From positions 11,284-75,283 of the IMG/VR virus record IMGVR_UViG_3300042276_000119: a stretch of 64,000 nucleotides of DNA; one strand, given 5' to 3'. Positions 996-47,733 of this stretch are shown piece by piece; the first letter of the stretch is position 1, and each line of letters begins with the position of its first letter. This DNA is from a virus (Duplodnaviria; Caudoviricetes). The notes under the pieces were generated by a model. That model made no database searches, was not told the DNA's origin, and saw nothing but the letters and a program-made list of their open reading frames with translations. The position numbers and the translations under genes were made by a program.

Positions 996-2021
996 ATGAG
1001 TTTTACAGACTCGAATACATCACAGCTGGCATACGCGATTGATGCGGCTACCACGCTGGCTGGCCTGACGGCAACTGAACTGAAGCCGATCAACATCCTG
1101 AACGACAACCTGAAGCCGACGATCAGTGCCAAGACTTCAGACGACATCCGTGACGACGGCCAGTATTCCACTGCCCGCACCATGGGTGGCTCTGCTGGTG
1201 GCGCTGTGAACATGAACTTCCGTTATGGCGAGTACGATGACTTCCTCCGCGCTGCATTCCGCAACGATTGGGTGGAAGACACTGCCGACGCCACAGGCAA
1301 AACTCACGTTCTGTGGAATGGTCTGGAGAAGGTGCCGTTCTTCTTCGAGCGTAAGCTGAAGCGTCTGGACGATGCCGGTAACGAGTGGAACGACTTCAGA
1401 CGTTTCTTCTCTCAGTACCTGTCCACAGCGACTCTGAATCTGCCGTCTGAAGACTGGGTTACGCTGAATACCAATTTCCTGGGGCTGGGCTTCGCCTACG
1501 ACGAGCAGGACGCCTCCGTTGACCCGAAAGCGGGTGAGATCGCTGGCATCACCTACCTGGCCCGGGGCAACAGCGACCCCATCGACTCGTCCAACTCGAT
1601 CACGTCCATGATCGTGAAAGACGAAACTGGCACGCCCATGGACCTGGTATTGGAGCAGGGCTCTGTCGAGTTCAACTCCAACCTGCGTGAAGACAAGGCA
1701 GTTGGTCATCGGTTCTCTGCCAACATCGGCTTTGGTCGATTCGGCTGCATGGTGAATGGTACGTTCTACTTCCGCAACCAGGCTGTTCTGGACGCGATGT
1801 GGAACGACAAGAACCTGTCCGTCGAAATCACCTTCACTGTGAACGGCAACGCCTACACACTGGTAATGCCTGCTGTGCGTGTGATGCAGAACGATGAAGA
1901 CGTTCCGCAGGTGGATGTGACCATGCGTTCCCCGGTGCAGATGCAGGCGTTCCCGAAGACCGTTACGGTTGCGGGTGCTCCTGTAAACTGCACTGCTTAC
2001 ATTGTGCGTGTAGCAGCCTAA
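996..2021 (+). CDS. major tail tube protein
   Basis: 341 aa, beta-rich, strong GAGGT RBS, highly biased codon usage. N-terminal SDDIRDDGQ...GG pattern and position before chaperone and TMP fit a tail tube. Confidence 0.8.
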   Translation: MSFTDSNTSQLAYAIDAATTLAGLTATELKPINILNDNLKPTISAKTSDDIRDDGQYSTARTMGGSAGGAVNMNFRYGEYDDFLRAAFRNDWVEDTADATGKTHVLWNGLEKVPFFFERKLKRLDDAGNEWNDFRRFFSQYLSTATLNLPSEDWVTLNTNFLGLGFAYDEQDASVDPKAGEIAGITYLARGNSDPIDSSNSITSMIVKDETGTPMDLVLEQGSVEFNSNLREDKAVGHRFSANIGFGRFGCMVNGTFYFRNQAVLDAMWNDKNLSVEITFTVNGNAYTLVMPAVRVMQNDEDVPQVDVTMRSPVQMQAFPKTVTVAGAPVNCTAYIVRVAA

Positions 2022-2056
2022 GGTTGCTGGTCAATAACTAGACAGCCGTTTCGGCT

Positions 2057-2106
2057 TGTACAAATGTACAAATGTGCTGTAGTATCTTATGCACATTTGT
2101 ACATTT
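2057..2106. promoter_or_regulatory. inverted pair of TGTACAAATGT operator-like motifs
   Basis: TGTACAAATGTACAAATGTGC-N13-GCACATTTGTACATTT between the tail tube and chaperone genes. Confidence 0.65.
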
Positions 2107-2126
2107 TTCTTTTATAGGGTAGACCA

Positions 2127-2564
2127 ATGGCATTTTGCATCCATAACACTGTCACTGACGAAAAAGCTGAAATCGAAGGCATCTGGATGGACTACGATGG
2201 AGGCAGTCGTGTGAAGCTGGCCCGCTTCAACAATGAAAAAGCCCAGCGTATGCGCATGGAGTGGTACCAGGAAAATAAAGCCCTGTTGGAAGCCCTGGCC
2301 GATAAAGGCGAGGAAGGCGAACAGCAGCGCGAAGACCTGTTTAAGGCTGGCGAAGCCAAGATCATGTCTGAAGCAGTTCTGCTCGACTGGGACGGCTTTG
2401 AAGACCTGGAAGGCAAGAAGGTTAAACACACTCAGAAGACCGCTGAACAGTACCTGCTGCTGTCCAAGGACTTCCGAAAGGACATGAGCATGATGTCCGG
2501 CAACCGCGACAAGTACCTGCTGAAAAACCTGCAGGACGACGTTGAGGCCGCAAAAAAGTCGTAA
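2127..2564 (+). CDS. tail assembly chaperone (gpG-like)
   Basis: 145 aa between the tail tube and TMP genes. Has an LLDWDG motif and ends in the slippery A AAA AAG. Confidence 0.85.
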   Translation: MAFCIHNTVTDEKAEIEGIWMDYDGGSRVKLARFNNEKAQRMRMEWYQENKALLEALADKGEEGEQQREDLFKAGEAKIMSEAVLLDWDGFEDLEGKKVKHTQKTAEQYLLLSKDFRKDMSMMSGNRDKYLLKNLQDDVEAAKKS

Positions 2565-2908
2565 GCTGGTACGCTCGTCATGGGGATGTCAATCTGGCAT
2601 CCCTTCACGAAGCCTGGAGGCGATGGGGTGAAAAGCCAAAGGTTCTTCAGGAGCACGACGAACTCCCTCAGCTACCGTCGCACTTCAACGAAGCCTTCCA
2701 CGTTTTCAACTTCCTCAAGCAGCTAAGACCCTCCAATGAAACGGGCTACCAGCCTATCCCTCTCACCGATGTACAAATGTACATTTGTACCACGTTGCGG
2801 TATTCTGACCCCGTTTATACCCGGTGGCTCACCGAGGTTGTCGTGGGCTGTGACGCCGCCGAACGCCGGGTAATTTCACAGAAGCTCTCAGAGAAGCAGG
2901 GTACTTAA
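2552..2908 (+). CDS. -1 frameshift extension of the tail chaperone (gpT-like part of gpGT)
   Basis: A_AAA_AAG at 2552-2558. The -1 frame is open to TAA at 2906-2908 (KKVVSWYARHG...LRPSNETGYQPIPLTDVQMYI...EKQGT), ending 1 nt before the TMP ATG. Absent from the ORF track because it has no start codon. Confidence 0.8.
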   Translation, partial: KKVVSWYARHGDVNLASLHEAWRRWGEKPKVLQEHDELPQLPSHFNEAFHVFNFLKQLRPSNETGYQPIPLTDVQMYICTTLRYSDPVYTRWLTEVVVGCDAAERRVISQKLSEKQGT

Positions 2909-2909
2909 C

Positions 2910-5900
2910 ATGGCGTTTACTCTCGATATTGCGTTAGCTGGGCAGCAGTCTGTAGAGCGGGCTATCGAACAGATCGGGGGTAAGCTCAAAAAGGCGGGGC
3001 AGGAAGCAACTAGCCTATCATTCGCTGCTGAGAAAGCCGTTAAGGTAATAGGCACTGACTACGCAAAGGCAGCGGCTACCGCAGGAGCTGCCACCGGCAC
3101 CCTGAACGCTGGGCTTGAAGCAGAATCAAAGCTCCTTCAGAAAACCTGGCAGGAAACTCAGCGGTACAACAACGTCCTGAAAGACCAGCAGAAATTGCAG
3201 CAGCTGGTCCATAAGTCCTCCAAAGATTACAGCACCGCCCTCGAACAGCAAATCATGCAGATGAATCACGCAGGTATGCGTACAGCCTACTTGCGTGAAG
3301 CTGAGATGAAACTGGCTGAACAGCACAGGAAGCTGCAAGCCGAAGCCTCGCTGTTCAACACCACCATGGCTCAAACTGTACGAGGTATGGAAGCACAGCT
3401 AAAAGCCGCAAAGGCCACTGAGGAATCCGACCGCAAACGGGCACAGCGGGTCAAAGACCTCACTGCCGAACTGAAACACCTCAGCACCCAAGAGGGCAAA
3501 GACGCACTGCTGCTTGAGCATAAAATCAAGCTCACAAAGGAAGCAGCGCTCGCTGAGACAAAGCGAAAAGAACGGATTGGTGCCCTTCGTTCTGAGCTTC
3601 GCTACCTCGCCTCTGAGGAAGGCAAGAAGGCAGAATCGCTCGCCCTTCAAGTAAAACGCTCGAAGGAAGCTGCTGTCGCTGAAGAGACTCGCAAAAATCG
3701 CGTCAAAGACCTGCGAGCAGAGATACGTTACCTCAACTCTGAAGAAGGCAAGCTCCAGACTTCTTTGGAGGCTCAGGCCAAACGCACCAAAGAGCAATCC
3801 CAGCTCGAAGAGAAACGGGCAAACCGCCTAAAAGACCTGCGAGCAGAGATACGTTACCTCAACTCTGAAGAAGGCAAGCTCCAGACTTCTTTGGAGGCTC
3901 AGGCCAAACGCACCAAAGAGCAATCCCAGCTCGAAGAGACTCGCAAAAATCGCGTCAAAGACCTGCGAGCAGAGATACGTTACCTCAACTCTGAAGAAGG
4001 CAAGCTCCAGACTTCTTTGGAGACTCAGGCCAAACGCACCAAAGAGCAATCCCAGCTCGAAGAGAGACGCAAAAATCGCATCAAAGACCTGCGATCAGAG
4101 ATTAAGTACCTCAACTCTGAAGAAGGTAAGCTCCAGACTTCTTTGGAGGCTCAGGCCAAACGCACCAAAGAGCAATCCCAGCTCGAAGAGAGACGCAAAA
4201 ATCGCATCAAAGACCTGCGATCAGAGATTAAGTACCTCAACTCTGAAGAAGGTAAACGTAAGGCTGTTATGGAGCAGCAGTTGCGTGGCCAGCGCGAGTT
4301 GGTGGTGGAGGAAGAGAAGCGCCGACAGACGCTGAAAAAGCTCAAGTCTGAACTCGACTACCTGAAAACTGCAGACGGTAAGCGCCAAGAACTGATGAAG
4401 TCGGAGCTTGCACTTCAACGCCAGCTGATCCAACAAGGCGCAAAGCAGAACGCGGAACTTCGCTCCTCGGAAAACGCTCTCAAACGGTACAACTCTGAGA
4501 AGCAGCGAAGCATTGAGCTTGCCCGCCTAGAGTTGTCTGAAAAGAAAAAGGCTGACAAGGCATGGGCTGAAGAACAGCTTGGCATCAAGAGGACCACCAC
4601 TGCGTTTGATTCTCACAACGCGAGCATCAAACGCCTCCGAGAGGAGATTAAGTTTCTTCAGAGTGCTCAAGGTAAAGAATTTCTTGAATTAGAACGGCAG
4701 AGGCGTCTCCTAAAACAGACCCGTGACGAGCTTGTGAACGCAGGCACTGCCACTGACAGGTTCAGACGTAGCATTACGCAGCTGACGACATCGCTAAACC
4801 TTTCCAATCAGGCTACAGCTGGTTTCCGCGCTGGGTTGTCAGGCTTAGGCGCATCCTTTGGCATGTTTACAAGCTCAACTATCCTGGTTGCTTCTGCAAT
4901 ATACGGTACCACAGCTGCACTTCGGGAAAGCATCACTGCCGGCGCACAGTTTGAGTCCCAGATGGACCGTGTTAATGCCATCTTGGACTCAACCGGCAAC
5001 AGCAGTGTGATCCTAGAGGACCATGTACGAAACTTAGCTAAAGAAACTATATTCACGGCGCGTGAGGTGTCTGACGGTCTGATGTACCTCGGCATGGCAG
5101 GGCTAGACGCCGAACAAGCTATCGAGGCGCTGGAGCCATCTCTTCGGCTTGCATCCATTGGTATGTTGGACATGGGCACTACTGCCGACATCGTGACCAA
5201 CATCATGGTAGGTATGGGGCTGGAGGCATCTCAGATCGGAGGGATCGTCGATGACATGGCCACGGCGATCACTAGTTCCAACATGGACGTTCGCCAGCTC
5301 GGCAACGCCATGTCCTACGTTGCACCCCTGGCCAGAGAAGCCGACATCTCACTGCAGGAGATCACTGCGTCTCTCGAAGTCTTGCACAACACGGGTATCA
5401 AGGCATCTCGTGCAGGTACGGCGATGCGTACCTCCATGCTGGCGCTGCTGGCACCTACTGCCGAGGCAATGGAAGTCCTGCAGAGGTATGGGATTCGAGT
5501 AGACGATACCTCTGGAAGGATGCGAAATTGGACTGATCTGTTGACAGAGATGGCCGATGCCCAGATGACGCTCTCTGACATCGAGGCGATTGTCGGCAAA
5601 CGTCAGGCAGCTGGCCTAAAGGCTATGGTTGACTCCGCAAAAGCAACAGAGGCAGCAGCTGAAAAAGCCAAGAAACTGGGCCTTGAAGTAGGCAAAACTG
5701 CATCAGAACTGAAGGTGCTGACGCAGCAGCTACACGAGAACGCAGGCGCCGCCAAGGTTATGCAGGGGGTCATGGAAGACAACCTGACAGGCGACTGGCT
5801 GAAATTTCTGTCTGCCGCTGAAGACAAATACATTGAGTTCTATGATCTGAATAAAGAGGAGCTGAGGTTCCTCGTTCAGAGAGCCACAGACTTTGTAAAG

Positions 5901-8900
5901 GCTTTCGATGTCACACAGGTAGATACCTTTTTCAGAACGCTCCTTAGTTATTTAGATGAGACCATAGAGCTGCTTGCGGCTATGAAAGCTGCCTCTGTTA
6001 CCTCCGCTATGGGTAGCAGCATTGGCGCTGTGGTCGGGGGCATAGCCGGTGGTATCGTCACTAGAACCTCGGTAGGGGTGGCGGCTGGGGCTCAGATTGG
6101 GGCATCTGCTGGGCATTTCCTGGGTGGCGTAGCTGGTGGGGTCACAGCTGCTTACCAAACGGACAAGGGGCTGGACTCCCTTGCAGAGTCCATTTACGGC
6201 CCTGCTGGAGGCATGAATAGAGAGGAACTTGCGCTTGCCAATCGAGTAGCCCGTTACCGTGACCTTGCCGTAGACGAACTGCTCAAGACTTACGATGCGT
6301 TGGAAGCCTCTGCAGAGATAAACTCCAGGGCTTTAATCGAGGCTAGGGAAGCCAGAGACACTGCTTTAGCCATTGGAGACCAGGACAAAGCCTCTGAACT
6401 ACTGGAACTTATAGACCAGCTCACCAGAAAGACAAAAGAGCTTGAATTGCAGTTGAGAGCTGCGGGGGTTGCCCGTGAAGAGTCAGGGCTGTTTGGCTCC
6501 AGGGCAGAATTAGAGAATGAACTGGCCTTAGTTGACTCCCAAATTCAGATTGAAGTCGCACAGGTCGGCATCAAACGTGAAGCGGCCCTTAGGAACACAA
6601 AGGGAGCACCTGAATGGGTGCAGCAGTTCGAGCTGAAGGGGGCCGAAGAGGACCTTGTGGCGCTGATGGAACGGCGGGCGCTACTGCAGCAGAACTTGAA
6701 CGCCTACAAGGCGACGGAGGTCGAAACTGAAGAACGACTGCAAAGGGAAACCGGAGAGACGGTTAACAACGCTGAGAAGGTCTACCAGTCTTACCTGAAA
6801 CAGAACGCTGAGATTCGTGGGCAGGTTTCTGACCAAGAAAAACTAAATGCTATACGGCAACAGTACGCTGAAAAATCCAAGGAGATGGAAACTGCCCGGA
6901 CCACAAGCCTACTAGACACAAAAACTCTGAAGAAAGAGTTGCTTAAACTCTCGGAGGAGGAGGTCAGGCTTACTGAAAAAATCCGACAGGCTAACGTCAA
7001 GATTACCGAGGACTCTCGGAGAGCCAACGAACAGGCATTCAAACGCATGGTTTCCGCCAAGCAGGAAGCCGAGGCAGTTCGTGACCAATACGCGGCCATT
7101 GAGTACCGGAACGAGGCTTACGAGAACGGGGTCTTGCTGCTAGACGATGAGAACTACGAGCGGGAACGCGCTATTCGCCTGCAGGAAGAGGAGATTGAAA
7201 ACGCAGAACGTAACCTGCAGCTGAGGATAGACGAAGGGAAGATCACAGAGGAGGGCATAGCCAGCCTCAGAAAAGAGATTGGTTACCATAAAGACAAGCT
7301 TGGATATCTGAAACAGCAGAAGGTTGAGATTTCAGGAGCTCGCCGCTTTGCTGAACAGCAGGCGCAATCCCTGTCTCAGATGTACTCCACCATCGAGTCC
7401 GAAACCGTCGGTCTCCTGGAGCGTGGATTCAAAGACACCGAGAGCTTCTTCGATAGCATCGTAGGCTCATTCAAGCGAATGCTGGCCGAGCTGGCCTACC
7501 AAGCTGCTATCAAGCCGATCATCGTCAACATGGTTGCCAGTGTCGGTGGCATGATGGGAATGGGGCCAGCAGCAAATAAATGGGCTGCTGACCAGGGTGT
7601 GACCGTTGGCGGCGGCATGGGCAACCTTGTCGATATGGGCAAGAATGCCTGGAACTTCTGGAAGGGCGGCGGTCAGGCCGACGTAAGCTGGTTCAACGAT
7701 TTTGCTACCAGTGGGATGGGACAGTCGTTAGGGCTAAGCACTGCAGGCACTACGACCATTGCAACCGCGCTTCCAGGAGGTGGGCAGGCCCTGTCATCAG
7801 CGTTACCAGGGGTTGAAGGGGCACTAATGTCTCCGGTGGCACCACCAGCTGGTTCGTTCCAGGCCATATCTGGGGGTAGTCAGGTAGTGTCCTCCACAGC
7901 GCCAGTCATGTCTGAAGGCGCATCCCTTTTCAGCCAAGGCCTCTCATATTCCCCGTGGGGAGCAGTAGGGGGTCTGGCCGGGTCCGCGCTCGGCGTTGAA
8001 GGGTCTGGCAACATGTGGATTGACACGGCTATGACAACCGGAGGGTCCATACTGGGCAGTATGGCGGGTATCAGTATCGCCACTGCAATGGCTAGTGGGG
8101 CAGGAGGCGCCGCTGCAGGTGCGAGCGCTGGTTCAGTGGCAGGGCCTATAGGTGCAGCTATAGGCGCAGTTATTGGTCTCGCACTTGGAGGTGTGTTCGG
8201 CGGAAAACCCTCAAACAAAGAGGGTCGAGCTACCTACGATTTATCAACCATGGAAGTTGAAATAGGGGGGCAGACAGGTAAAAAGTTCAGCCAGGAGAAC
8301 CGTGACTCTGCAGAGGCGCTATCCGAGCTTATTGCTACCAACATAATACCGTCACTTGAACAGCTTGGTGACACGGACATATCTGGCCAGTTTATAGTTG
8401 GGGTAGGCAACAGGGACCCCATGCGATTCAGCTATAGGGAGCCAGGTTCAGAGCGAACAGGTAAGAATTGGGACTACGGATACGGGCGCGATAACTCTCA
8501 GGGCCATAGTTATTACGATGCTGTCTCAGGCAACACACGCGATCCAGAAACCTATATAGATAATGTTACTAAGTTTTTCGCTGGGACCATAGCGGGTATT
8601 CCTCTAGGCGTATACGACGCGCTGAAGAAAGCGGATGAAGGGTACATAGACACTATACGCAGAGTCGAGCTTGGAGCAGAGTTATTCAAAAACGCGGGAG
8701 ATCAGTTCTCCTTGATTACCCCGGATGTGTCTGCTTGGGTGCCGGAGACCGGCGTGGAAAATGGGCCTGACGAAGTTATAGCCAGATTAAGCGACAATTC
8801 ATCCAGAGGGGATACTCTCGCAGGCTTAGGGGGGGTGATGTTTGACGAAGTTATAGCCAGATTAAGCGACAACTCATCCAGAGGGAATATTCTCGCAGTT

Positions 8901-10976
8901 TTACGGGAGATGCTGCCTACTGAGGGTTTGGATGATGTAACAGCTGATTTTGCCGAGAACTTCTTAACCGCCACTGCACAAAACCTAGAAGCAGCTATAC
9001 AGGATTTCGGGGGCGTCTTCGGGGATGACCTGTCGGATGAACTAAAAAGTATAGTATCCACTGCGCTAGCCGACTTGAATGACTCCACTGGACTCTACGC
9101 ACAATTGATGGGTGAGTTCATCACTGAAGAAATATATGCAGCGTTTAAGCAGGGAGAAGAAAACGTCTTTCAAACCACCTCCAGGGTGGTAACCTCGTTT
9201 GAAGTTCTAGTTCAGGTGTTTGATAAGCTCGGCCTCGAACTAGAAGAAGTCGGCATGGAAGGATTCGCCTTAACCGAAAAGATGATCGAGCTTGCAGGTG
9301 ACTTTGAAACTCTGGCTGGCAATCTGGAATCCTACTACCAGAGCTTCTACAGCGAGGAAGAACGCGCCGCCAACGCGATGTCAGGATTGGTGGAATCCCT
9401 GGAGGCTCTGGGTTACGCGATACCCTTGACCAGAGAGGCGTTCAGAGCGTTGGTCACTGAGCTTGAAGCGGCCGGCAACCTTGAGGGCTTCAACACCCTG
9501 ATCGAGAACAACCAGTCCTACGCTGCTTACTACGCGCAGATGGAGCAGTGGACAGCCTCTCTGTTCGAGACATACCGTAACACCATTGGGCGCGACCCCT
9601 CTGCAATGGAGCTGTACCGGTGGCTGGATAAGCTGAAGACCGGAGAGGCCGTATTCAGCGATGTTGTTAAATCCCTCACCACAGGGCTATCAGAGGCTAC
9701 TGAACACCTGACCTGGCAGGATGTTAAAACCTTCCAGAGCGGCGCACAGGACATCTACGACGCCTACCAGTACACCTTGGAAATCGCTCAGGAAGAACAT
9801 GCCCTGACGCTGGATCGGATCAAGCAGGAAGAGAACCTGCTGAAATCCTTGCGTACTCTGATCGACAACCTGAAGCTCAGCGACATTTCCCCGCTGACGC
9901 CGGCAGAGCGACTGGCTGAGGCGCAGCGTCAGTATGCGTCTATTCTCACCGCTGTCGAAGGCGGAGACTTCTCAAGAGCCGGAGAGCTGGATTCCGCTGC
10001 TCAGGCTTACCTTGGTGAGGCATCAAGCTACTACGCCTCATCAGGTGCATACGAGAGTATTTTCAACGACGTTCTTGGTTCGCTTGAGAGCTTGGAAAAT
10101 CAGTACGGCCAAGAGACTGACTATGAGGCTCGAATTGAAGCTGCCAACAACGAGCTGCTGAACACCCAGATTCGGGCAGCTGAACTGCTGGATGCTCAGT
10201 TCAAACAACTCGCTGCAAGTGTCGGTCTCGAAGGCGATATCCTCTCAGCGATCCAGCTCCTGCCACAGGACCTGGCAACTGGCATAGGCGAAGTGGTGCA
10301 GGCTATCGCTGCTGGGCAACAGTTGAACCTGGAAGGTATTTCGTCTGAGGTTATAGCAGCCTACCAGACGGTACTTGGAAGGAACCCAGATGAACAAGGC
10401 GCCCAATACTGGCAGGGGCAGCTGGATTCCGGGGTATCCCTCGAAGAGATCGTGAAAGGGATGATCAACTCAGGAGAGTACCGTAGCGGCTCCGGTAAAT
10501 CCTATGACGGGCTGAGCCTGACAGGGGTTTCTTCCGACGTAATCAGCGCTTACGTCGACCTGCTCGGCAGGGCGCCAGATGCTCAAGGAGCTTACTACTG
10601 GCAGTCTCAGTTGGACTCTGGCACCTCCGTGCAGGAGATGCTCGCTGCATTCAAAAACTCTGCTGAGTACAAATCCAACGGCTCCCACTTCGGTGGTATC
10701 GAATCTGTACCTTACGACGGGTATAAAGCCATCCTCCATCGTGGGGAGAAGGTGGTTCCTGCTTCCCGTGCAAGGGCAGACGCTGACTCAGCCCTGGTTG
10801 CCGAGGTCCGGACGCTGCGAGAAGAAGTGTCCCGCCTGAGGTCTGACCAAGAGCGGCACACCCAAAAGATCACTTATGCCTCATACGACGCGGCAGAGCG
10901 AAGCTCCGACAAAGTAGCTGCATCGGTTAAGTCAGCCAAACCAAATACGACCAAGCACAAGGTAACTTTAAGATGA
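2910..10976 (+). CDS. tape measure protein
   Basis: 2688 aa, mostly helical or coiled-coil. Contains a TP901-type TMP core (FESQMDRV...GIKASRAGTAMR), Gly/Ala-rich hydrophobic stretches and a C-terminal VPYDGYKAILHRGEKV motif. Confidence 0.95.
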   Translation: MAFTLDIALAGQQSVERAIEQIGGKLKKAGQEATSLSFAAEKAVKVIGTDYAKAAATAGAATGTLNAGLEAESKLLQKTWQETQRYNNVLKDQQKLQQLVHKSSKDYSTALEQQIMQMNHAGMRTAYLREAEMKLAEQHRKLQAEASLFNTTMAQTVRGMEAQLKAAKATEESDRKRAQRVKDLTAELKHLSTQEGKDALLLEHKIKLTKEAALAETKRKERIGALRSELRYLASEEGKKAESLALQVKRSKEAAVAEETRKNRVKDLRAEIRYLNSEEGKLQTSLEAQAKRTKEQSQLEEKRANRLKDLRAEIRYLNSEEGKLQTSLEAQAKRTKEQSQLEETRKNRVKDLRAEIRYLNSEEGKLQTSLETQAKRTKEQSQLEERRKNRIKDLRSEIKYLNSEEGKLQTSLEAQAKRTKEQSQLEERRKNRIKDLRSEIKYLNSEEGKRKAVMEQQLRGQRELVVEEEKRRQTLKKLKSELDYLKTADGKRQELMKSELALQRQLIQQGAKQNAELRSSENALKRYNSEKQRSIELARLELSEKKKADKAWAEEQLGIKRTTTAFDSHNASIKRLREEIKFLQSAQGKEFLELERQRRLLKQTRDELVNAGTATDRFRRSITQLTTSLNLSNQATAGFRAGLSGLGASFGMFTSSTILVASAIYGTTAALRESITAGAQFESQMDRVNAILDSTGNSSVILEDHVRNLAKETIFTAREVSDGLMYLGMAGLDAEQAIEALEPSLRLASIGMLDMGTTADIVTNIMVGMGLEASQIGGIVDDMATAITSSNMDVRQLGNAMSYVAPLAREADISLQEITASLEVLHNTGIKASRAGTAMRTSMLALLAPTAEAMEVLQRYGIRVDDTSGRMRNWTDLLTEMADAQMTLSDIEAIVGKRQAAGLKAMVDSAKATEAAAEKAKKLGLEVGKTASELKVLTQQLHENAGAAKVMQGVMEDNLTGDWLKFLSAAEDKYIEFYDLNKEELRFLVQRATDFVKAFDVTQVDTFFRTLLSYLDETIELLAAMKAASVTSAMGSSIGAVVGGIAGGIVTRTSVGVAAGAQIGASAGHFLGGVAGGVTAAYQTDKGLDSLAESIYGPAGGMNREELALANRVARYRDLAVDELLKTYDALEASAEINSRALIEAREARDTALAIGDQDKASELLELIDQLTRKTKELELQLRAAGVAREESGLFGSRAELENELALVDSQIQIEVAQVGIKREAALRNTKGAPEWVQQFELKGAEEDLVALMERRALLQQNLNAYKATEVETEERLQRETGETVNNAEKVYQSYLKQNAEIRGQVSDQEKLNAIRQQYAEKSKEMETARTTSLLDTKTLKKELLKLSEEEVRLTEKIRQANVKITEDSRRANEQAFKRMVSAKQEAEAVRDQYAAIEYRNEAYENGVLLLDDENYERERAIRLQEEEIENAERNLQLRIDEGKITEEGIASLRKEIGYHKDKLGYLKQQKVEISGARRFAEQQAQSLSQMYSTIESETVGLLERGFKDTESFFDSIVGSFKRMLAELAYQAAIKPIIVNMVASVGGMMGMGPAANKWAADQGVTVGGGMGNLVDMGKNAWNFWKGGGQADVSWFNDFATSGMGQSLGLSTAGTTTIATALPGGGQALSSALPGVEGALMSPVAPPAGSFQAISGGSQVVSSTAPVMSEGASLFSQGLSYSPWGAVGGLAGSALGVEGSGNMWIDTAMTTGGSILGSMAGISIATAMASGAGGAAAGASAGSVAGPIGAAIGAVIGLALGGVFGGKPSNKEGRATYDLSTMEVEIGGQTGKKFSQENRDSAEALSELIATNIIPSLEQLGDTDISGQFIVGVGNRDPMRFSYREPGSERTGKNWDYGYGRDNSQGHSYYDAVSGNTRDPETYIDNVTKFFAGTIAGIPLGVYDALKKADEGYIDTIRRVELGAELFKNAGDQFSLITPDVSAWVPETGVENGPDEVIARLSDNSSRGDTLAGLGGVMFDEVIARLSDNSSRGNILAVLREMLPTEGLDDVTADFAENFLTATAQNLEAAIQDFGGVFGDDLSDELKSIVSTALADLNDSTGLYAQLMGEFITEEIYAAFKQGEENVFQTTSRVVTSFEVLVQVFDKLGLELEEVGMEGFALTEKMIELAGDFETLAGNLESYYQSFYSEEERAANAMSGLVESLEALGYAIPLTREAFRALVTELEAAGNLEGFNTLIENNQSYAAYYAQMEQWTASLFETYRNTIGRDPSAMELYRWLDKLKTGEAVFSDVVKSLTTGLSEATEHLTWQDVKTFQSGAQDIYDAYQYTLEIAQEEHALTLDRIKQEENLLKSLRTLIDNLKLSDISPLTPAERLAEAQRQYASILTAVEGGDFSRAGELDSAAQAYLGEASSYYASSGAYESIFNDVLGSLESLENQYGQETDYEARIEAANNELLNTQIRAAELLDAQFKQLAASVGLEGDILSAIQLLPQDLATGIGEVVQAIAAGQQLNLEGISSEVIAAYQTVLGRNPDEQGAQYWQGQLDSGVSLEEIVKGMINSGEYRSGSGKSYDGLSLTGVSSDVISAYVDLLGRAPDAQGAYYWQSQLDSGTSVQEMLAAFKNSAEYKSNGSHFGGIESVPYDGYKAILHRGEKVVPASRARADADSALVAEVRTLREEVSRLRSDQERHTQKITYASYDAAERSSDKVAASVKSAKPNTTKHKVTLR
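3681..4255 (+). repeat. 126-bp (42-aa) near-perfect tandem repeat, about 4.5 copies, inside TMP
   Basis: Units start at 3681, 3807, 3933, 4059 and 4185. Degenerate copies flank them. Confidence 0.95.
8768..8915 (+). repeat. 75-bp tandem duplication inside TMP (DEVIARLSDNSSRG x2)
   Basis: TGACGAAGTTATAGCCAGATTAAGCGACAA at 8768 and 8843. Confidence 0.9.
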
Positions 10977-21980: not shown

Positions 21981-22589
21981 TCAGTGTGCAGCTTGGACTT
22001 TCTGACGTTCTGTGTACCTGACCACCACGTCGGTTATACCGCCTAGATCAGTCTTCTCAGCTGCTCGCTCCGAAATACCTGCTTCCAGCTGGCCCAGTCT
22101 CAGCATGACCATCAGAAAGTCTGCCTGATCCTGCAAGTCCTTCAGAGAGCCGTTGTTGTCGATCACAACGTCAGCATCGCCCTTACGGAGCTGCATACTT
22201 TCCATAGGCTCAGGTAGCAGGTGCTCTGACCGGTCCACCCAGACCACTGCATCGAAGACGCCTGCTGCTTTACACGCTTCCAGTTCTTCCCGGTTGCGCA
22301 CTCCGCAGTAGATGTCGTTGTCTTTTGTGACCAGACGAGCCAGGCGAGTCAGATCGCCCTCGTTAAAATCCCTGATCTCGTCGTGCATCCAGGGGCGGAC
22401 TTCGCCACGGCGCTTGTACAGGTCTTCGGGGGACACGAAGCCCAACCCGTGCTCAACGGACAGGTCAAACAAGAACTCTCTGCAGGCGATCAAACTGGAG
22501 GACTCAAAGCGCATCCCGTAGCGATCTCTCAACATTTCGCAGAAGGTGTCTTTGCCATGTCGGGCGTGGCCAATTACGAGTAGTTTCAT
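21981..22589 (-). CDS. deoxynucleoside monophosphate kinase
   Basis: N-terminal P-loop IGHARHGKDT, plus G.RN..E and ADVVIDNNGSL motifs. Confidence 0.8.
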   Translation of the reverse strand: MKLLVIGHARHGKDTFCEMLRDRYGMRFESSSLIACREFLFDLSVEHGLGFVSPEDLYKRRGEVRPWMHDEIRDFNEGDLTRLARLVTKDNDIYCGVRNREELEACKAAGVFDAVVWVDRSEHLLPEPMESMQLRKGDADVVIDNNGSLKDLQDQADFLMVMLRLGQLEAGISERAAEKTDLGGITDVVVRYTERQKVQAAH

Positions 22590-22912
22590 TACGAAGCCCT
22601 CTCTACACGGTATAGCTTGTCTGAGTCGGACAGGGCTTCTCCGCTTTCAGGGACCTCTGTGTAAGTCTCAAGCTGCTCTTTCAGTCGCTGGTTCTGATTC
22701 GTCAGCCTCGTAACCTCCTCCAGACACATGGCTTCTTGTTTGGACTCAGAGGCGATCAGCCACAACAGGGTTGAGTAGGCAACAACATCTGCCAATGTCC
22801 ACCAGTCGAATCCGACGATTGCCAGGTGCAGAACGCCTGCAGAAGCGTATGCCCACGCCAGAGCAAAGAACAGGTTCGCCCAGGTTGCGTGCTTCTTGAT
22901 CCAAGTTTTCAT
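22589..22912 (-). CDS. membrane protein
   Basis: Two hydrophobic segments followed by a coiled coil. Coupled to its neighbours. Confidence 0.65.
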   Translation of the reverse strand: MKTWIKKHATWANLFFALAWAYASAGVLHLAIVGFDWWTLADVVAYSTLLWLIASESKQEAMCLEEVTRLTNQNQRLKEQLETYTEVPESGEALSDSDKLYRVERAS

Positions 22913-23118
22913 GCTTCCGCTCCCTTGGAATTGATCTGCGCCATCACCTCAGATTGGCTGCACAGAGCCGTCAACGACTCTCCGTTGTGCAGTGTGATCT
23001 GGCACCGGTTGTTGGCGTAGGTGTCATCTGAAATCATAGCGATGGCGTCTACAGCGAGGGTTACGGTGCCGACCATGCCGGCACCAAGGTTTCTGTTCAC
23101 TGAAATGAACTTGCTCAT
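22909..23118 (-). CDS. small FlbD/SwrD-like fold protein
   Basis: I.MI......ITLHNGE......SQSEV...I pattern. GAGGT RBS. Confidence 0.5.
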   Translation of the reverse strand: MSKFISVNRNLGAGMVGTVTLAVDAIAMISDDTYANNRCQITLHNGESLTALCSQSEVMAQINSKGAEA

Positions 23119-24494
23119 ACGGCCACCTCTGCCTTGATCGCAGGGTGTGGGTCGTAGAACTCGACACTGAAGTCGCTAACCTCGTAGTTACCAATGGACT
23201 TAGGCTCGAAAACCAGCTTTGGCAGTTCACGAGGCTTTCGGCTCAGCAGTTCCATAGCTTGCTCGAAATGATTGTGGTACAGGTGTAGGTCGCCAAACGT
23301 GTACGAAAGGTCTCCTACTTCAAGGCCGCACTCTGCGGCGATAATGTGGGTAAGCAGGGCGTAGGATGCGATGTTCACTGGCACCCCGAGAAATATATCA
23401 GCTGACCTCTGGTAGACTTGGCAGCTGAGCTGCCCGTCACACACGTAAAACTGGATAACTGACCCATGACAGCAAGGCAACTGTGCGTGTTCCATTGCTG
23501 GCGTAGCCCAAAGATTTACTACGTGCCGGCGCGACTCTGGGTATTCTTTGATGTTGGCTATTAACAGTTTGAGCTGGTCTAACTGCCGAAATCTCTGCAC
23601 CTTGCCAGGTTCTTCGGACGTGTATTTGAACTCTGACCAGCCGTGGTGTGTGTGCAACTTCCCGTTTAGGCATCTATGAACTGCTGACAAATTCAATCCG
23701 AACAGTCTTTTTGCCTCCCCTATTGAAGGGAACAGTATGTTCTCGCCCTCTGGACTAACAGCGGTGAATGCCCTCTGGTTTGACACGTTGAAACCTTGCT
23801 CGTCATGCGAGGCCCAGCAGCAGGTCTCTTTTGAGTACCTGTTACTCGCGTGAAGTATGTCCTTGTCTATGCTGTAGTCTTTTGGGAAATGTTTCTTCAG
23901 CGTGTAGCCTATGAGAGTCTTGGCATCCTCAAAGAACTTACCAAAGTTCAGCCATTCCGGCGCAACATGAACCCCTACAGCTCCGTACGCTGCGTAACTT
24001 CTGCAGGTTGGGTCGTAACATCTGCGAAGCATGTTTCTCCACACCTCTTTGAGCATCGCTTCTTCCGGCTCTACCCCATGGTGTGGCTTGCGTTTAAATT
24101 CGCCCAGGTCACCCACTCCGTAAACGAGCCCTTCTTTTGGCTCCGGCACGTAGGGCTCGAAAGTTTTCACTTCTGTAAGGAACCACCAACGGGCGTACCG
24201 GTACTGCTCCCCGTAGATTGGTCCAAGACTGCCATCTGCCTTTTGCCAGGGCGTCCACCAATGCCTGACACTTTTTGGCAAGTCCTGTGTGTTCGTCGAG
24301 CCAGACAAGAACCACAGCAATTCTGCTACAGTGCCGCCTACAAACATTTTCTTCGTCGTCAGCAGCGGGAACCCTTGGCTCAGATCGAACCGCACCTGCC
24401 GACCGAATACAGATCGGGTGCCGGTGCCGGTGCGGTCACCACGGTCTTTGCCGTTGGTCATCACGTCTTCAAGCAGCGTGTGATATTGCTTCAT
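23115..24494 (-). CDS. thyA: thymidylate synthase with an in-frame HNH endonuclease insertion
   Basis: DRTGTGT, GFPLLTTKK, ELLWFL, LGPIYG.Q, SRR, LPCCH (catalytic Cys), YQRSADIFLGVPVN, GDLHLY and PAIKAEVAV are all present. About 200 aa longer than canonical ThyA. Confidence 0.95.
   Translation of the reverse strand: MKQYHTLLEDVMTNGKDRGDRTGTGTRSVFGRQVRFDLSQGFPLLTTKKMFVGGTVAELLWFLSGSTNTQDLPKSVRHWWTPWQKADGSLGPIYGEQYRYARWWFLTEVKTFEPYVPEPKEGLVYGVGDLGEFKRKPHHGVEPEEAMLKEVWRNMLRRCYDPTCRSYAAYGAVGVHVAPEWLNFGKFFEDAKTLIGYTLKKHFPKDYSIDKDILHASNRYSKETCCWASHDEQGFNVSNQRAFTAVSPEGENILFPSIGEAKRLFGLNLSAVHRCLNGKLHTHHGWSEFKYTSEEPGKVQRFRQLDQLKLLIANIKEYPESRRHVVNLWATPAMEHAQLPCCHGSVIQFYVCDGQLSCQVYQRSADIFLGVPVNIASYALLTHIIAAECGLEVGDLSYTFGDLHLYHNHFEQAMELLSRKPRELPKLVFEPKSIGNYEVSDFSVEFYDPHPAIKAEVAV
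23583..24194 (-). mobile_element. HNH-type homing endonuclease domain with C-terminal NUMOD1-like HTH, inserted in frame in ThyA (approx. aa 101-304)
   Basis: VYGVGD, W.NML.RCY, YG..GV.V..EW.NF..F, IDKDIL...NRYS.ETCCW and F.SI.EA.R..G...S.V..CL.GK....HGW motifs. Confidence 0.8.
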
Positions 24495-24676
24495 AGTTTG
24501 CAGGCGCCTCCAGCGCAGTCGTCGAGGTCCATGGACTCCAGCTCTTCCTTCTCGGCCAGGGTCTTTTTCAGGGCACCTGCAACGTCGTCATCTTCCTGGT
24601 AAGTGCCTTCGCTGTCTTCGTAGCTCTTGAACCATCCGAGGATGGTTCTGAGTTCTGCAATGGTCAGGTCGTTCAT
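24491..24676 (-). CDS. 61-aa acidic protein ending in an NrdA-like C-terminal CxxxxC tail
   Basis: Ends DLDDCAGGACKL. ACCAAAGGACC leader upstream, stop overlaps the thyA start. Confidence 0.7.
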   Translation of the reverse strand: MNDLTIAELRTILGWFKSYEDSEGTYQEDDDVAGALKKTLAEKEELESMDLDDCAGGACKL

Positions 24677-24703
24677 GTAGTGGTCCTTTGGTTAGAGAGT
24701 TGG

Positions 24704-24943
24704 TTACTTCAGTTTTCGGTTCGCAGTGATTCGCTCGTAGTCATCACGGCAGTCTGAGTCACAGAAGAGCTTCACCTGCCGGTCCTGCATCTCGAAGGGT
24801 TCGTCACAGTTGTAGCAAATGCCTTTCGGGCTGAGCTTTGGCCCCGTGTTCAGCTGCGCTCTGGCGTTTGCGATGCCCATGTCGACAGTGCGTTGAATTT
24901 CAATGTCAGCCCTGTCGGCTGGGTCTCCGAAGTGAATACTCAT
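24704..24943 (-). CDS. DksA/TraR-like zinc finger protein
   Basis: DPADRAD N-terminal motif and CYNC...FCDSDC. Confidence 0.65.
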   Translation of the reverse strand: MSIHFGDPADRADIEIQRTVDMGIANARAQLNTGPKLSPKGICYNCDEPFEMQDRQVKLFCDSDCRDDYERITANRKLK

Positions 24944-25290
24944 GGATACGTCCACTCAAATTTTCCAGTTATCTTGTTGCCAAATTCGTCAATGTAGGTT
25001 GGCGTTGCATCTTTGCTGCGTTCCCAGTGTTCTCGGTGCACCAGAAGCAGAACAGGGTGATCCATCTCCCAGATGTGCCCACTCTCGAAGTAGGGGAATC
25101 TGGTTCCGGCGGGTACTTTGATCAGCAGAGGGCAGTCAACAGGTGGGAGTTCCTTGTTCAAATGCAGGTCGGTGCCAGGCAGCAGGAATCCCGCCACCGG
25201 CAACTCTGGGTGTTTCATCGCCTTGAAATACATCAGTGGAGCCTGGCCAGGCTCCCCGAGTTCCAGTGCGCAGTTAGGACACCGCTGCAT
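24940..25290 (-). CDS. hypothetical protein
   Basis: Likely start MQRCPNC overlaps the dUTPase end. Stop is coupled to the next ATG. Confidence 0.55.
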   Translation of the reverse strand: MQRCPNCALELGEPGQAPLMYFKAMKHPELPVAGFLLPGTDLHLNKELPPVDCPLLIKVPAGTRFPYFESGHIWEMDHPVLLLVHREHWERSKDATPTYIDEFGNKITGKFEWTYP

Positions 25291-46226: not shown

Positions 46227-46904
46227 TCAGTCGTCAATTAATTGGTATAACCAAAGCGATAGTTTATTGACAGTGTTATGGGATATTGGTGCGTATTTTT
46301 CACTCAGGTACGTGGCTATTTTTCGAGTGGATTTACCCTTTGCCCAATGCAAATCTGCGAGTTCCGCAAGCGCCTGTTGGTACCAGTCAGACTCCTGCAG
46401 GTACTTCACACCCTGCAGCTCTATGACTGTGTGACCCCAGGGTACGTAACCGCCCATGAACCGGCCTTCCTCTGAATGGGCGACCTTTACATCTCGGATA
46501 CGCTCGGCAATCCGACTGCGCTCAAAGTCAGCCACTGCAGCGAGAATGGTGTAGATCAGCTTACCTACCCCGTCACCCGTCACTTCGCCACCCATGTCCA
46601 TTATATAGAGGCGAATGCCTTGCTCTTTGAACCGGTTGATCGAGTACAAAGCATCTTCAGAATTGCGGAACAGTCGGTCAAACTTGGCAATCAGCAGATG
46701 GTCACCTTCCTTCAACAGGTTGATAAGTTGTCCACCGGCCGGCCGTTCAGCCAGTCGTACAGAACCTGACACACCTTCATCAGCGAAGTGCTGGTCAACT
46801 TCCATCTGCATGGTGGTGGCGTAGGCCCGCAAAGTATTCTCTTGCACCTTGAGGGACATGCCCTGGGTCCCGGTAGAAACTCGGGCATAGGAGTAGACGG
46901 CCAT
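46227..46904 (-). CDS. small serine recombinase (resolvase/invertase family)
   Basis: YARVST (catalytic Ser), D.GVSG...RP, GD.L...KFDRLFRN, A.FER..I.ER, GRFMGG..P.G and a C-terminal HTH. Confidence 0.92.
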   Translation of the reverse strand: MAVYSYARVSTGTQGMSLKVQENTLRAYATTMQMEVDQHFADEGVSGSVRLAERPAGGQLINLLKEGDHLLIAKFDRLFRNSEDALYSINRFKEQGIRLYIMDMGGEVTGDGVGKLIYTILAAVADFERSRIAERIRDVKVAHSEEGRFMGGYVPWGHTVIELQGVKYLQESDWYQQALAELADLHWAKGKSTRKIATYLSEKYAPISHNTVNKLSLWLYQLIDD

Positions 46905-46906
46905 GC

Positions 46907-47350
46907 CTACTGCCCCTGGCCGGTCAGGATTGACGACGGCAGTTTTGACACGCTCAGCATCCGGACTGCAGCGACCTCTGCATGGGCCTCTGCCCGGTAG
47001 CGTTCGCGGTCTACAAAACTGACTTCGTTGAACCCTTCTCGAAGGTTGCGCACCACCCTTACAACTGACTCAGGTGACAGTGTGCAGATGCGGGCAAGCT
47101 GGAAATGGAGGTAGGGGTGCTTGGCGGCATACTTCGGAGCGAACTTCTTGATCCACTCGATGTACTTGGCCGCTTTGAATTCGGTGATCACTCGCTGCTG
47201 AGCTTCTCGTTCAGCGTCGTACTTTTTGCCGGGCGGGATGAAATCCAGAGGGAGGCTCAGTGCTTCCAGTTCAACCATCTGCACCATGTCCTCAATGTCG
47301 CTAATGATTTGCCTTTCGTTTTCAACTCGGCAGTTTGGCATGTTCATCAC
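46907..47350 (-). CDS. hypothetical protein
   Basis: GAGGT RBS, ends 2 nt before the resolvase start. Confidence 0.65.
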   Translation of the reverse strand: MMNMPNCRVENERQIISDIEDMVQMVELEALSLPLDFIPPGKKYDAEREAQQRVITEFKAAKYIEWIKKFAPKYAAKHPYLHFQLARICTLSPESVVRVVRNLREGFNEVSFVDRERYRAEAHAEVAAVRMLSVSKLPSSILTGQGQ

Positions 47351-47504
47351 TTATGTACCTCAGTGTAACGGTGTAACGGCGGTTTTGGTGTACATCTCTG
47401 TCACCCCGCAAATGCGCCGTTACACTCATGGTCAGTTTGTACCAATGGTCTTCTGGTCGAAGGTGGGTGCCTGGGCCGAAGCCCAGGACTTTTGGAGGTC
47501 GCAC
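47322..47504 (-). CDS. small hypothetical protein
   Basis: Lies downstream of the 47526-47555 promoter. Weak RBS. Confidence 0.35.
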   Translation of the reverse strand: MRPPKVLGFGPGTHLRPEDHWYKLTMSVTAHLRGDRDVHQNRRYTVTLRYISDEHAKLPS

Positions 47505-47519
47505 ATGTCAGGGTGCTCA

Positions 47520-47555
47520 TGTACAAATGTACAATTGCACCTTAGCTATTGTCAA
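47520..47555 (-). promoter_or_regulatory. sigma70-like promoter with operator motif, upstream of the resolvase/RHH cluster
   Basis: TTGACA-18-TACATT. The -10 lies inside GTGCAATTGTACATTTGTACA. Confidence 0.6.
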
Positions 47556-47698
47556 CCTTCTTCAACAACTGCTGACAATGCTTCTCCAACTGCCGGCCAT
47601 CCTTACTCAACAGTTCTACGCCAGTGATCAAGATGCGCTCTCCTTCCCCGTACTAGAAGTACGGGGAAGGAGAGCGCGAACCGCGCAAGCGGTTCTTG

Positions 47699-47727
47699 TT
47701 GACAGGCTAAATATACACAGTTACTAT
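47699..47727 (+). promoter_or_regulatory. tnpB promoter
   Basis: TTGACA-17-TACTAT, with the ATG 6 nt after the -10. Confidence 0.75.
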
Positions 47728-47733
47728 TCGGAC

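Follow-up and report, generated by a model that had tools for sequence, protein, structure and literature searches.

The stretch of DNA considered here, called the window, comprises 64,000 nucleotides (positions 11,284 to 75,283) of the IMG/VR virus record IMGVR_UViG_3300042276_000119, a tailed phage of the Caudoviricetes. Its minus strand carries a thymidylate synthase gene, thyA, in which 203 in-frame residues occupy the site of a 7-residue surface loop of Escherichia coli ThyA. The gene and its main parts are the following.

23115..24494, minus strand: thyA open reading frame (ORF) with the in-frame insert, 459 amino acids (aa) plus stop (ORF, translation, Pfam, TIGR03284 and structural model)
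24198..24494, minus strand: ThyA N-terminal core, residues 1-99, ending in LGPIYGEQYR (aligns to E. coli ThyA 1-99)
23589..24197, minus strand: insert, residues 100-302 (203 aa), in place of E. coli ThyA 100-106 (ThyA alignment, phrog_2081 and insert-only model)
23118..23588, minus strand: ThyA C-terminal core, residues 303-459, with the catalytic C342 (aligns to E. coli ThyA 107-264)

The reading that is favoured here, and that appears probable, is that this gene encodes a ThyA with a fixed, unspliced and shortened homing-endonuclease-type module. The module probably binds DNA and appears to have been inherited mainly vertically.

The two core parts appear to make up a complete enzyme. PF00303 (Thymidylat_synt) matches the whole protein in two stretches with an E of 5.3e-91 and 304.9 bits (cut-off 24.3), and TIGR03284 matches it with 305.6 bits (cut-off 108.35). 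ThyA structures match the model of the whole protein with Z-scores of 31.6-32.9 and root-mean-square deviations (rmsd) of 1.4-2.2 over 240-281 aligned residues. Counterparts of E. coli ThyA R21, E58, W80, Y94, R126/R127, C146, R166, D169, N177, H207, and Y209 are all present. In a structure-guided alignment, C146 corresponds to C342 and R126/R127 correspond to R322/R323. The residues aligned to this set are invariant across 41 insert-bearing sequences, that is, the window's protein and 40 ThyA-embedded relatives, and they presumably have the catalytic and substrate- or folate-binding roles of the E. coli residues. An earlier first-pass annotation, which was made from the sequence alone, had reported an unbroken frame with all catalytic ThyA motifs intact, and the 459-codon ORF and its residues agree with that report. 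Going by these residues, the product of the insert-bearing gene is very probably an active thymidylate synthase.

The insert begins with YARWW and ends with VQRF, after which RQLDQL follows. The first-pass annotation had placed it at 23583..24194, between LGPIYGEQYR and DQL, which is right to within 3-6 bases. It had also described the insert as having no intein or intron signature, and the searches point the same way. Rfam covariance models run with permissive filters on 22500-25200 of the window gave no match at E<=10, and no group I intron was found. Pfam, searched with the insert alone at E<=10, returned a NUMOD-like domain only and no Hint, intein, or HNH model. NCBIfam returned no family for the insert at E<=10. 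Among the 41 aligned sequences, there is no conserved Cys, Ser, or Thr at either junction and no terminal His-Asn. Homology to the free-standing family phrog_2081 covers residues 119-306 (188 residues). This leaves about 19 residues on the N-terminal side and about 0-10 on the C-terminal side, which are too few for Hint halves or for a ribozyme core of about 250 nt. The whole insert is conserved as an in-frame protein in the 41 sequences. One RNA-library contig of 177 nt (23495-23669, one difference) is unspliced across the junction of the insert and the C-terminal core. The RNA-library contigs leave 24133-24186 uncovered, and the N-terminal junction is not bridged with 31 letters on both sides. 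It is almost certain, in our judgement, that the insert is translated as part of ThyA and that no splicing takes place at the RNA or the protein level.

ORFs in other frames overlap the insert at 23437-23673 (minus), 24109-24315 (minus), and 23850-24602 (plus), and none has a PHROG hit at E<=1e-5. A hidden out-of-frame HNH gene of the ShiLan type was ruled out on this ground. The antisense ORF at 23850-24602 (plus) has 250 codons and is most likely a by-product of codon composition. Programmed translational bypass was also ruled out, because the insert is conserved as protein.

It is well supported that the insert derives from a family of homing-endonuclease-type genes, which are either free-standing or ORFs of group I introns. 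The insert matches phrog_2081, labelled 'HNH endonuclease', with an E of 3.1e-41 over profile positions 76-266 of 433. In Bastillevirinae, the group I introns that interrupt DNA polymerase genes can contain phrog_2081 ORFs (PMC11878797, in part). The derivation from a homing element that the first-pass annotation had proposed is thus supported at the level of the family. Residues 100-302 were searched against 5.8 billion proteins and gave 76 hits. Of these, 75 carry PF00303, and their inserts share 41-58% identity with that of the window. A further hit, P0004, does not differ from the window in its insert. When 1.84 billion cluster representatives were searched exhaustively without a profile, 14,985 proteins reached E<=1e-3 and 787 reached E<=1e-10. 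Among the best 150 representatives, 58 are ThyA-embedded (35 of 76 and 18 of 69 scanned, and 5 already on record). The remainder of these 150 are mostly free-standing proteins of 140-360 aa that have a NUMOD-like domain as their sole Pfam domain.

The embedded inserts fall into two size classes, 197-217 aa ('short') and 264-281 aa ('long'). The long inserts add an N-terminal beta domain and cover phrog_2081 from about 23 to 282, and gp46 of Bacillus phage Chotacabras covers 25-249. Because these profile spans are equal, a long insert appears to be a whole protein of the free-standing type and the window's copy a shortened one. The window's insert is without the N-terminal approximately 50 profile positions that are found in long inserts and free-standing members. 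In Bacillus phage Kioshi, gp41 (548 aa) has a long insert at the same ThyA site and is annotated only as 'thymidylate synthase'. Chotacabras has a free-standing family member two genes upstream of an uninterrupted thyA. These related Bastillevirinae differ in the place of the family member, which is free-standing in Chotacabras (2318-4255, L003) and inside thyA in Kioshi (1856-3502, L002). For the window's own gene, megablast against 50,697 phage records gave no match. A tblastn search of phages with a junction-spanning piece gave 193 records, two of which cover at least 80% of the query. One of these two, Stenotrophomonas phage ANB28, was considered as a cultured carrier and rejected, since it has an ordinary 843-nt thyA.

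The module is also found in other settings. The metagenomic protein P0320 (307 aa) matches dihydrofolate reductase (DHFR) over its first approximately 45 residues (phrog_316, E 3e-6; DHFR_1, weak). The long form of the module follows the DHFR part and runs to the end of the protein, which may be cut by the contig end. A second folate-pathway enzyme may carry the insert in this case. In P0203 (557 aa) and P0338 (420 aa), the module lies mid-protein between flanks that have no Pfam or PHROG match, possibly in a third host protein. At the C-terminal end of P0203 there is another module, of the D-R-I-D type. Among the relatives P0261 (409 aa), P0287 (661 aa), P0274 (460 aa), and P0256 (362 aa), the whole module occurs in two or three copies in tandem. 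P0261 has three copies, each with L-D-R-I-D...Y...N-C-R-W-A...E-Q..N and with Cys-rich knuckles in front. In P0256, the module is fused to an RNase_T-type exonuclease.

The AlphaFold2 model of the whole protein has a mean predicted local distance difference test (pLDDT) score of 90.7 and a predicted template modelling (pTM) score of 0.87, and the model of the insert alone has a pLDDT of 93.0. The parts of the module were assigned as follows.

24171..24197, minus strand: stalk strand 1, residues 100-108 (DSSP on the full-length model)
24069..24170, minus strand: linker with a GVG motif, residues 109-142, where the 'long' relatives hold a beta domain of about 70 aa (alignment and size classes)
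23877..24068, minus strand: helical bundle, residues 143-206, with helices 143-160, 165-169, 179-191, and 197-202 (model)
23787..23876, minus strand: HNH-derived beta-beta-alpha unit, residues 207-236, with strand YSID, loop, strand CWAS, and helix (DSSP, hhalign and alignment)
23616..23783, minus strand: I-HmuI-type NUMOD-like helix-turn-helix (HTH) DNA-binding domain, residues 238-293 (PF22083 and structure match)
23577..23603, minus strand: stalk strand 2, residues 298-306 (GKVQRFRQL), leading back into ThyA (model; consensus G.V.R.R..DQL)

In the model, strands 100-108 and 298-306 form a two-stranded stalk that holds the module away from the ThyA body. The surface-loop position that had been suggested for the domain is thus borne out as a folded module on a stalk. 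DSSP places the strands of the beta-beta-alpha unit at 207-210 and 226-229 and its helix at 230-235. Twenty insert residues, many of them polar, are invariant in the 41 sequences. In the helical bundle, these include W152, M155, R158, C159, Y160, G171, G174, W181, and F187. In the beta-beta-alpha unit, they include D210, K211, D212, N218, Y220, T224, W227, and Q233.

The HTH domain is the part with the clearest identity. PF22083 (I-HmuI_NUMOD-like) matches residues 245-287 with an E of 8e-10 and 38.6-39.4 bits (cut-off 27). In the whole-protein model, the domain matches residues 119-172 of 1u3e_M with a Z of 8.7 and an rmsd of 1.0 over 53 aligned residues at 28% identity. The insert-only model matches I-HmuI with a Z of 8.9 and an rmsd of 2.8 over 64 aligned residues, and Foldseek gives an E of 1.7e-5 over 109 columns. 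I-HmuI is the best structural match outside ThyA, and a second look at PDB structures found nothing beyond I-HmuI and AcrVA3. In the structure searches run, the helical bundle and the first strand of the beta-beta-alpha unit had no clear solved counterpart, which is not evidence of a new fold. A phmmer search of the insert against PDB sequences returned only rows with E of 0.34-0.56, and the photosystem I PsaD rows among them look like chance.

The beta-beta-alpha unit is, on sequence comparison, HNH-derived. An hhalign comparison with I-HmuI, using a profile of the window's insert and 55 free-standing relatives, gave a probability of 96.9% and an E of 1.5e-10. It aligned T224-C-C-W...E232-Q233 with I-HmuI N87-L-R-W...I95-N96, which are the second strand and the helix of the HNH unit; the match leaves out the first strand of the beta-beta-alpha unit. 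The same positions of phrog_4578 are matched by the unit of P0261 and by the HNH region of I-HmuI.

The unit differs from a standard HNH site. There is no general-base His, the window's protein having D210-K211-D212 where I-HmuI has D74-H75-K76-D77. The His is likewise absent from the 40 embedded and the 55 free-standing relatives. D-K-D is invariant in the 41 embedded sequences, each of its residues is kept in at least 90% of 56 rows (the 55 free-standing relatives and the window's insert), and some other relatives have D-R instead. Q233, which is invariant in the embedded forms, aligns with I-HmuI N96, and the free-standing consensus at that position is Asn. Roles have been assigned to I-HmuI D74, H75, and N96 from the structure of that enzyme. 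None of 145 relatives matches a Pfam HNH profile (PF01844, PF13392, and the like) at E<=0.001. A survey of Bastillevirinae introns gives phrog_2081 proteins DNA-binding signatures only and no recognised nuclease signature (Table 2; PMC11878797, in part). The first-pass annotation had named the insert an HNH homing-endonuclease domain. The motifs that it quoted are real, conserved, and HNH-derived; the catalytic His is absent, and there is no Pfam HNH match.

The missing His does not prove inactivity, because the restriction enzyme PacI works without a catalytic His, whose role is taken by a Tyr in the loop between the strands (PMC5714182, in part). In the module, Y220 is one of four columns that are invariant over the embedded and the 55 free-standing forms, the others being R158, G171, and W181. 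The structural match to PacI is weak (Z 5.0, rmsd 3.6, 95 aligned) and falls within the range that the tool calls common. Because the polar residues of the beta-beta-alpha unit and the HTH are invariant, DNA recognition appears to have been retained, and it is quite likely that the module still binds DNA. Nicking or cutting of DNA by a His-less site might also persist, but this is somewhat doubtful.

The history of the insert was explored through trees of the ThyA core, which were built with the insert columns removed. In a FastTree of the core, a branch with a support of 99 (the starred value 99*) has 74 insert-bearing rows and one insert-less row on one side. On its other side are 112 insert-less rows, which are mostly bacterial-type ThyAs. 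A search with the single insert-less ThyA of the insert side found a few more insert-less relatives. In an IQ-TREE quick tree of 117 core rows, rooted on a Listeria ThyA, 77 insert-bearing rows are grouped and eight insert-less rows are nested deep inside them. Presence of the insert changes four times on this tree, and at least two of the changes are forced by well-supported branches. The nested insert-less ThyAs have loops of the ordinary bacterial kind. Long inserts are basal, and short forms arise in several places. The Kioshi ThyA stands apart on a long branch. The ThyA tree had been put forward earlier as a check for a patchy distribution of the insert. Eight insert-less rows lie nested among the 77 insert-bearing ones, and neither a recent gain nor a recent transfer can be seen.

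Insert and enzyme are conserved to about the same degree. Among 120 proteins, mean pairwise identity is 0.428 for the insert and 0.458 for the core, and the two co-vary (Pearson r 0.70, Spearman 0.65, over 7140 non-independent pairs). No pair among the 120 has a near-identical insert in a distant core, and the highest insert identity at a core identity below 0.4 is 0.55. For 119 proteins, 18 of 116 splits are found in both the core tree and the insert tree; when labels were permuted 200 times, the number was 0.175 (maximum 2). Approximately unbiased (AU) tests were done on a 55-row subset, and there the insert data do not reject core-tree clades of two rows (p-AU 0.50) or of seven rows (p-AU 0.46). 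A tree of the module was built from 129 embedded rows and 85 free ones; on it, 11 changes of the embedded state are needed, compared with 66.9 for shuffled labels, and at least two are forced. The nearest insert-less ThyA to the window's C-terminal half is 59-61% identical, as bacterial ThyAs are too. The insert is the hallmark of a large and old clade of ThyAs, in keeping with the permanent domain that had been suggested from the sequence. Descent appears to have been mainly vertical, together with the enzyme. The first-pass annotation had also stated that a nuclease-dead domain with strictly vertical inheritance would speak against its proposal; the data lean to vertical inheritance and settle neither part.

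Several points weigh against this account. Of the strongly supported splits in the quick trees of 119 proteins, 12 out of 34 for the core are incompatible with 8 out of 18 for the insert. On the 55-row subset, a clade of five in the insert tree is rejected by the core data (log-likelihood difference 230.6, p-AU 6e-70); this group was chosen post hoc. P0225 and P0249 have cores that are 71% and inserts that are 35% identical, and for P0225 and P0271 the values are 36% for the cores and 54% for the inserts. If shortened inserts evolve at unequal rates, such discordant identities could result. The module may have been inserted more than once, and an old lateral exchange of inserts is possible as well. 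Instead of losses, the nested insert-less ThyAs could represent empty sites that have survived from the ancestor. The sample of insert-less ThyAs is made up of the best hits to two queries and is no census of phage ThyAs. The RNA-library evidence for an unspliced insert is a contig, not reads, and may stem from DNA in the library.

With these points set beside the evidence for it, a fixed and unspliced module that probably binds DNA and descends mainly with ThyA is still preferred. Homing endonucleases usually aim at highly conserved sequences of their host gene. In the proposed course of events, thyA received an entire gene of the homing-endonuclease type, in frame and between YG.Q.R and DQL. 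The insertion would have been tolerated because the two ends of the module lie side by side and the loop is permissive. The insert would then have become fixed in a large phage ThyA lineage and been kept by selection on its own function. Later descent would have been mainly with the enzyme under purifying selection, with loss of the N-terminal beta domain in several lines, including the window's. Today, a ThyA dimer most likely carries two sequence-specific DNA-binding modules. Candidate roles of such a DNA-bound dimer are cutting or blocking the uninterrupted thyA of rivals or the host, tethering the synthesis of deoxythymidine monophosphate (dTMP) to DNA, and autoregulation.

The strongest alternative is that the module is an active, splice-free homing endonuclease, which cuts or nicks the insert-free thyA of co-infecting phages or the host. 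ThyA would remain working, the active site would be PacI-like with Tyr220, D210, and Q233, and the element would spread by gene conversion or be used as a weapon. The family of intron ORFs and free-standing genes is in line with this, as are the two positions of the family member, near thyA in Chotacabras and inside it in Kioshi. So are the insertion point between two of the most conserved ThyA motifs and the insert-less alleles within the clade. D210, K211, D212, N218, Y220, and Q233 are invariant in the embedded forms, Y220 also in the free-standing ones, and PacI offers a precedent for a Tyr in place of the His (PMC5714182, in part). The tree conflicts and discordant identities can be counted here too, as can the same module behind the first approximately 45 residues of DHFR in P0320. 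However, the general-base His is absent throughout, none of the 145 relatives has a Pfam HNH match, Gln stands at the I-HmuI N96 position, and the N-terminal domain is lost in the window's form. The PacI match, weak in structure, is within the range that the tool calls common, and two or three tandem copies of the module, as in the relatives, are more typical of DNA-binding units. No near-identical insert sits in a distant core, the core tree is not contradicted by the insert data, and the nearest insert-less ThyA to the window's C-terminal half is just 59-61% identical. An active endonuclease is thus unlikely. The first-pass annotation had proposed a bifunctional ThyA-nuclease that cuts insert-free alleles. 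This proposal fares poorly, given the absent His, the Gln for N96, the lost N-terminal domain, and the lack of any visible recent gain or transfer. It is a little less likely again that the insert represents a third way besides introns and inteins, with a splice-free, in-frame domain that is an active nickase or nuclease with a His-less, PacI-like Tyr site; the enzyme dimer would then cut the uninterrupted thyA of competing phages or of the host chromosome, and selection would keep the insert as a built-in gene drive or weapon rather than a fossil.

The insert might instead be a passenger that has no function of its own and is kept for its foldability, clean deletion being rare and any frameshift or misfolding killing ThyA. 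Stops and frameshifts are indeed impossible without destroying an enzyme that has intact catalytic residues. Parts have also been lost repeatedly, and short forms without the N-terminal beta domain are nested among long ones. However, the polar residues R158, D210, K211, D212, N218, and Q233 are invariant, and H273, R274, and H283 of the HTH are nearly so. Foldability alone would not fix polar residues over a ThyA divergence to about 25-40% identity. With a mean identity of 0.428, compared with 0.458 for the core, the insert shows no faster evolution, and the insert-less members show that loss is possible. This explanation is quite improbable. A cryptic splicing element, an unrecognised type of intein or intron whose removal leaves an ordinary mature ThyA, is hardly credible: phages continue to yield new self-splicing architectures (bioRxiv 10.1101/2025.01.02.630785, in part), but the insert has no Rfam, Hint, or intein match at E<=10, no junction nucleophile, and no terminal His-Asn, nearly all of it is homologous to a free-standing protein and the whole is conserved in frame, and the RNA-library contig, a weak point, is unspliced across one junction.

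A number of known systems resemble the window's thyA in part. Homing endonuclease genes in thymidylate synthase genes are known from group I introns, for example in T4 td with I-TevI and in Bacillus mojavensis with I-BmoI. The insert is like these in placing a homing-endonuclease gene in a thymidylate synthase gene. In contrast to them, it belongs to another nuclease family and lies at another site in the gene, and the introns are spliced out of the RNA. In Bacillus phages beta22 and Bobb, thyA contains group I introns that encode GIY-YIG endonucleases (PMC4528723, in part).

The ShiLan domain of mycobacteriophage DNA methylase genes is the closest published parallel. There, a different frame encodes the HNH endonuclease, and the frame of the host gene gives a featureless hairpin (PMC11855218, in part). 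Both are insertions into an enzyme gene that leave the frame open, have no intron or intein features, and form a predicted appendage away from the enzyme body (PMC11855218, in part). ShiLan is patchy and described as actively homing (PMC11855218, in part), whereas in thyA the in-frame product is itself an endonuclease-family protein, and it is old and nearly fixed in its ThyA clade.

Inteins with HNH domains are also in-frame insertions with an endonuclease-type domain, and they have 'allelic' copies at one site across a host-gene family. They differ in having Hint halves and conserved junction nucleophiles and in being excised; the insert is without either feature. Thymidylate synthases of actinobacteriophages carry true inteins (bioRxiv 10.1101/2025.01.02.630785, in part).

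Among proteins, I-HmuI and the intron-borne phrog_2081 ORFs are nearest to the module. I-HmuI, the HNH homing endonuclease encoded in the group I intron of the DNA polymerase gene of Bacillus phage SPO1 (PDB 1u3e), resembles it in the NUMOD-like HTH at the C-terminus and, within the HNH unit, in the second strand and the helix. I-HmuI is a separate intron-encoded protein of phrog_59 with D74-H75 and N96, in contrast to D210-K211 and Q233 of the module. The module is without I-HmuI's linker between the HNH helix and the C-terminal domain, and it has its own helical bundle, which is absent from I-HmuI. The phrog_2081 proteins are of the same family as the insert. They are stand-alone frames that are neutralised by splicing or an intergenic place (PMC11878797, in part), unlike the insert, which is fused at both ends into an enzyme. 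PacI (3m7k/3ldy) is likewise a His-Me finger protein without the catalytic His and with a Tyr in the loop, and this likeness is a lead, not membership. It differs from the module in its zinc sites and in being a homodimeric restriction enzyme (PMC5714182, in part).

ThyAs of the Lactobacillus/Listeria type tolerate another lineage-specific insertion, of about 50 aa in the small domain. That insertion lies upstream of LG.IYG.QWR (P0119) and is unrelated to endonuclease families; the insert in the window lies downstream. In a full-text literature search, with subscription-only journals outside its coverage, no published ThyA with an in-frame endonuclease-family domain was found. A paper on an Achromobacter N4-like phage (PMC3915230) and a jumbo-phage survey (PMC7824862) mention thymidylate synthase and HNH genes separately only.

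The window's thyA stands in a block of genes for nucleotide metabolism and replication in this tailed phage. Neighbouring genes encode a deoxynucleoside monophosphate (dNMP) kinase, a DksA-like protein, a MazG-like pyrophosphohydrolase, SbcCD, a ligase, a polymerase, helicases, and a primase. The module is single-copy in the 75-kb virus record. No compositional break was found between the insert and the rest of thyA. The guanine-plus-cytosine (GC) content is 0.506 in the insert against 0.52-0.56 in the core, GC at third codon positions (GC3) is 0.586 against 0.61-0.67, and the codon adaptation index (CAI) is 0.556 against 0.579. The whole thyA is somewhat lower in GC3 than the replication genes.

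The stretch is present in 24 public runs, 12 of which are marked as possible sources. The other 12 runs come from 12 studies of wastewater, bioreactor, and riverine samples and include one metatranscriptome. Contigs of four public runs were aligned to the gene. DNA contigs from two other runs span the whole insert, one of 1325 nt without differences and one that is 97% alike (23115-24400). An assembly chimera was ruled out, because error-free or near-identical contigs of other runs span the insert and because about 130 related proteins have the same architecture. Three contig joints that skip 1015-1062 nt or 62 nt were considered as splicing and rejected; their sides have 24-65 letters at 85% likeness, and one joint has 424 other letters between its sides. 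They are read as insert-less thyA of other organisms matching the conserved motifs.

P0004 is identical to the window's protein over residues 1-417, and 12 of its last 42 residues differ. In a contig from a riverine metagenome, the differences are likewise crowded at 23157-23241. This looks like a recombination breakpoint between related phages near the 3' end of thyA (23118-23243). P0080 (295 aa) has the N-terminal approximately 100 residues of ThyA followed by C-terminal segments apparently twice, and it could be a rearranged gene or an assembly artefact. Elsewhere in the window, a serine recombinase/invertase-type gene (46227-46904, minus; phrog_95/125) adjoins a transposase gene (47428-48891, plus; phrog_506, E 1.9e-136). 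The pair at 46227-48891 looks like an insertion sequence or a recombination module. A tape measure protein of 2688 aa is encoded at 2910-10976 (plus) and matches several PHROG tape-measure families (best E 1.3e-71).

To our knowledge, homing endonuclease genes have been thought to survive in essential genes only through removal with an intron or intein, or else between genes. The window's thyA indicates that a selfish gene of an endonuclease family can settle in an essential enzyme without an intron or intein. An endonuclease-family protein is here fused at both ends into an enzyme of DNA-precursor synthesis, where it has long been kept and is as conserved as the enzyme. The feature is overlooked, since the annotation of these genes reads 'thymidylate synthase' and no more. 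The insertion site is a ThyA loop that has proved in nature to admit an inserted domain. Were the module active, it would widen the repertoire of strategies of selfish elements and of His-less His-Me nucleases, and its presence in DHFR and in a protein of no recognised family would point to a general class of homing elements embedded in enzymes. If it only binds DNA, it would clearly illustrate how, in nature, an endonuclease can be domesticated by insertion as a domain, and it would raise the question of what use a DNA-bound thymidylate synthase is to the phage.

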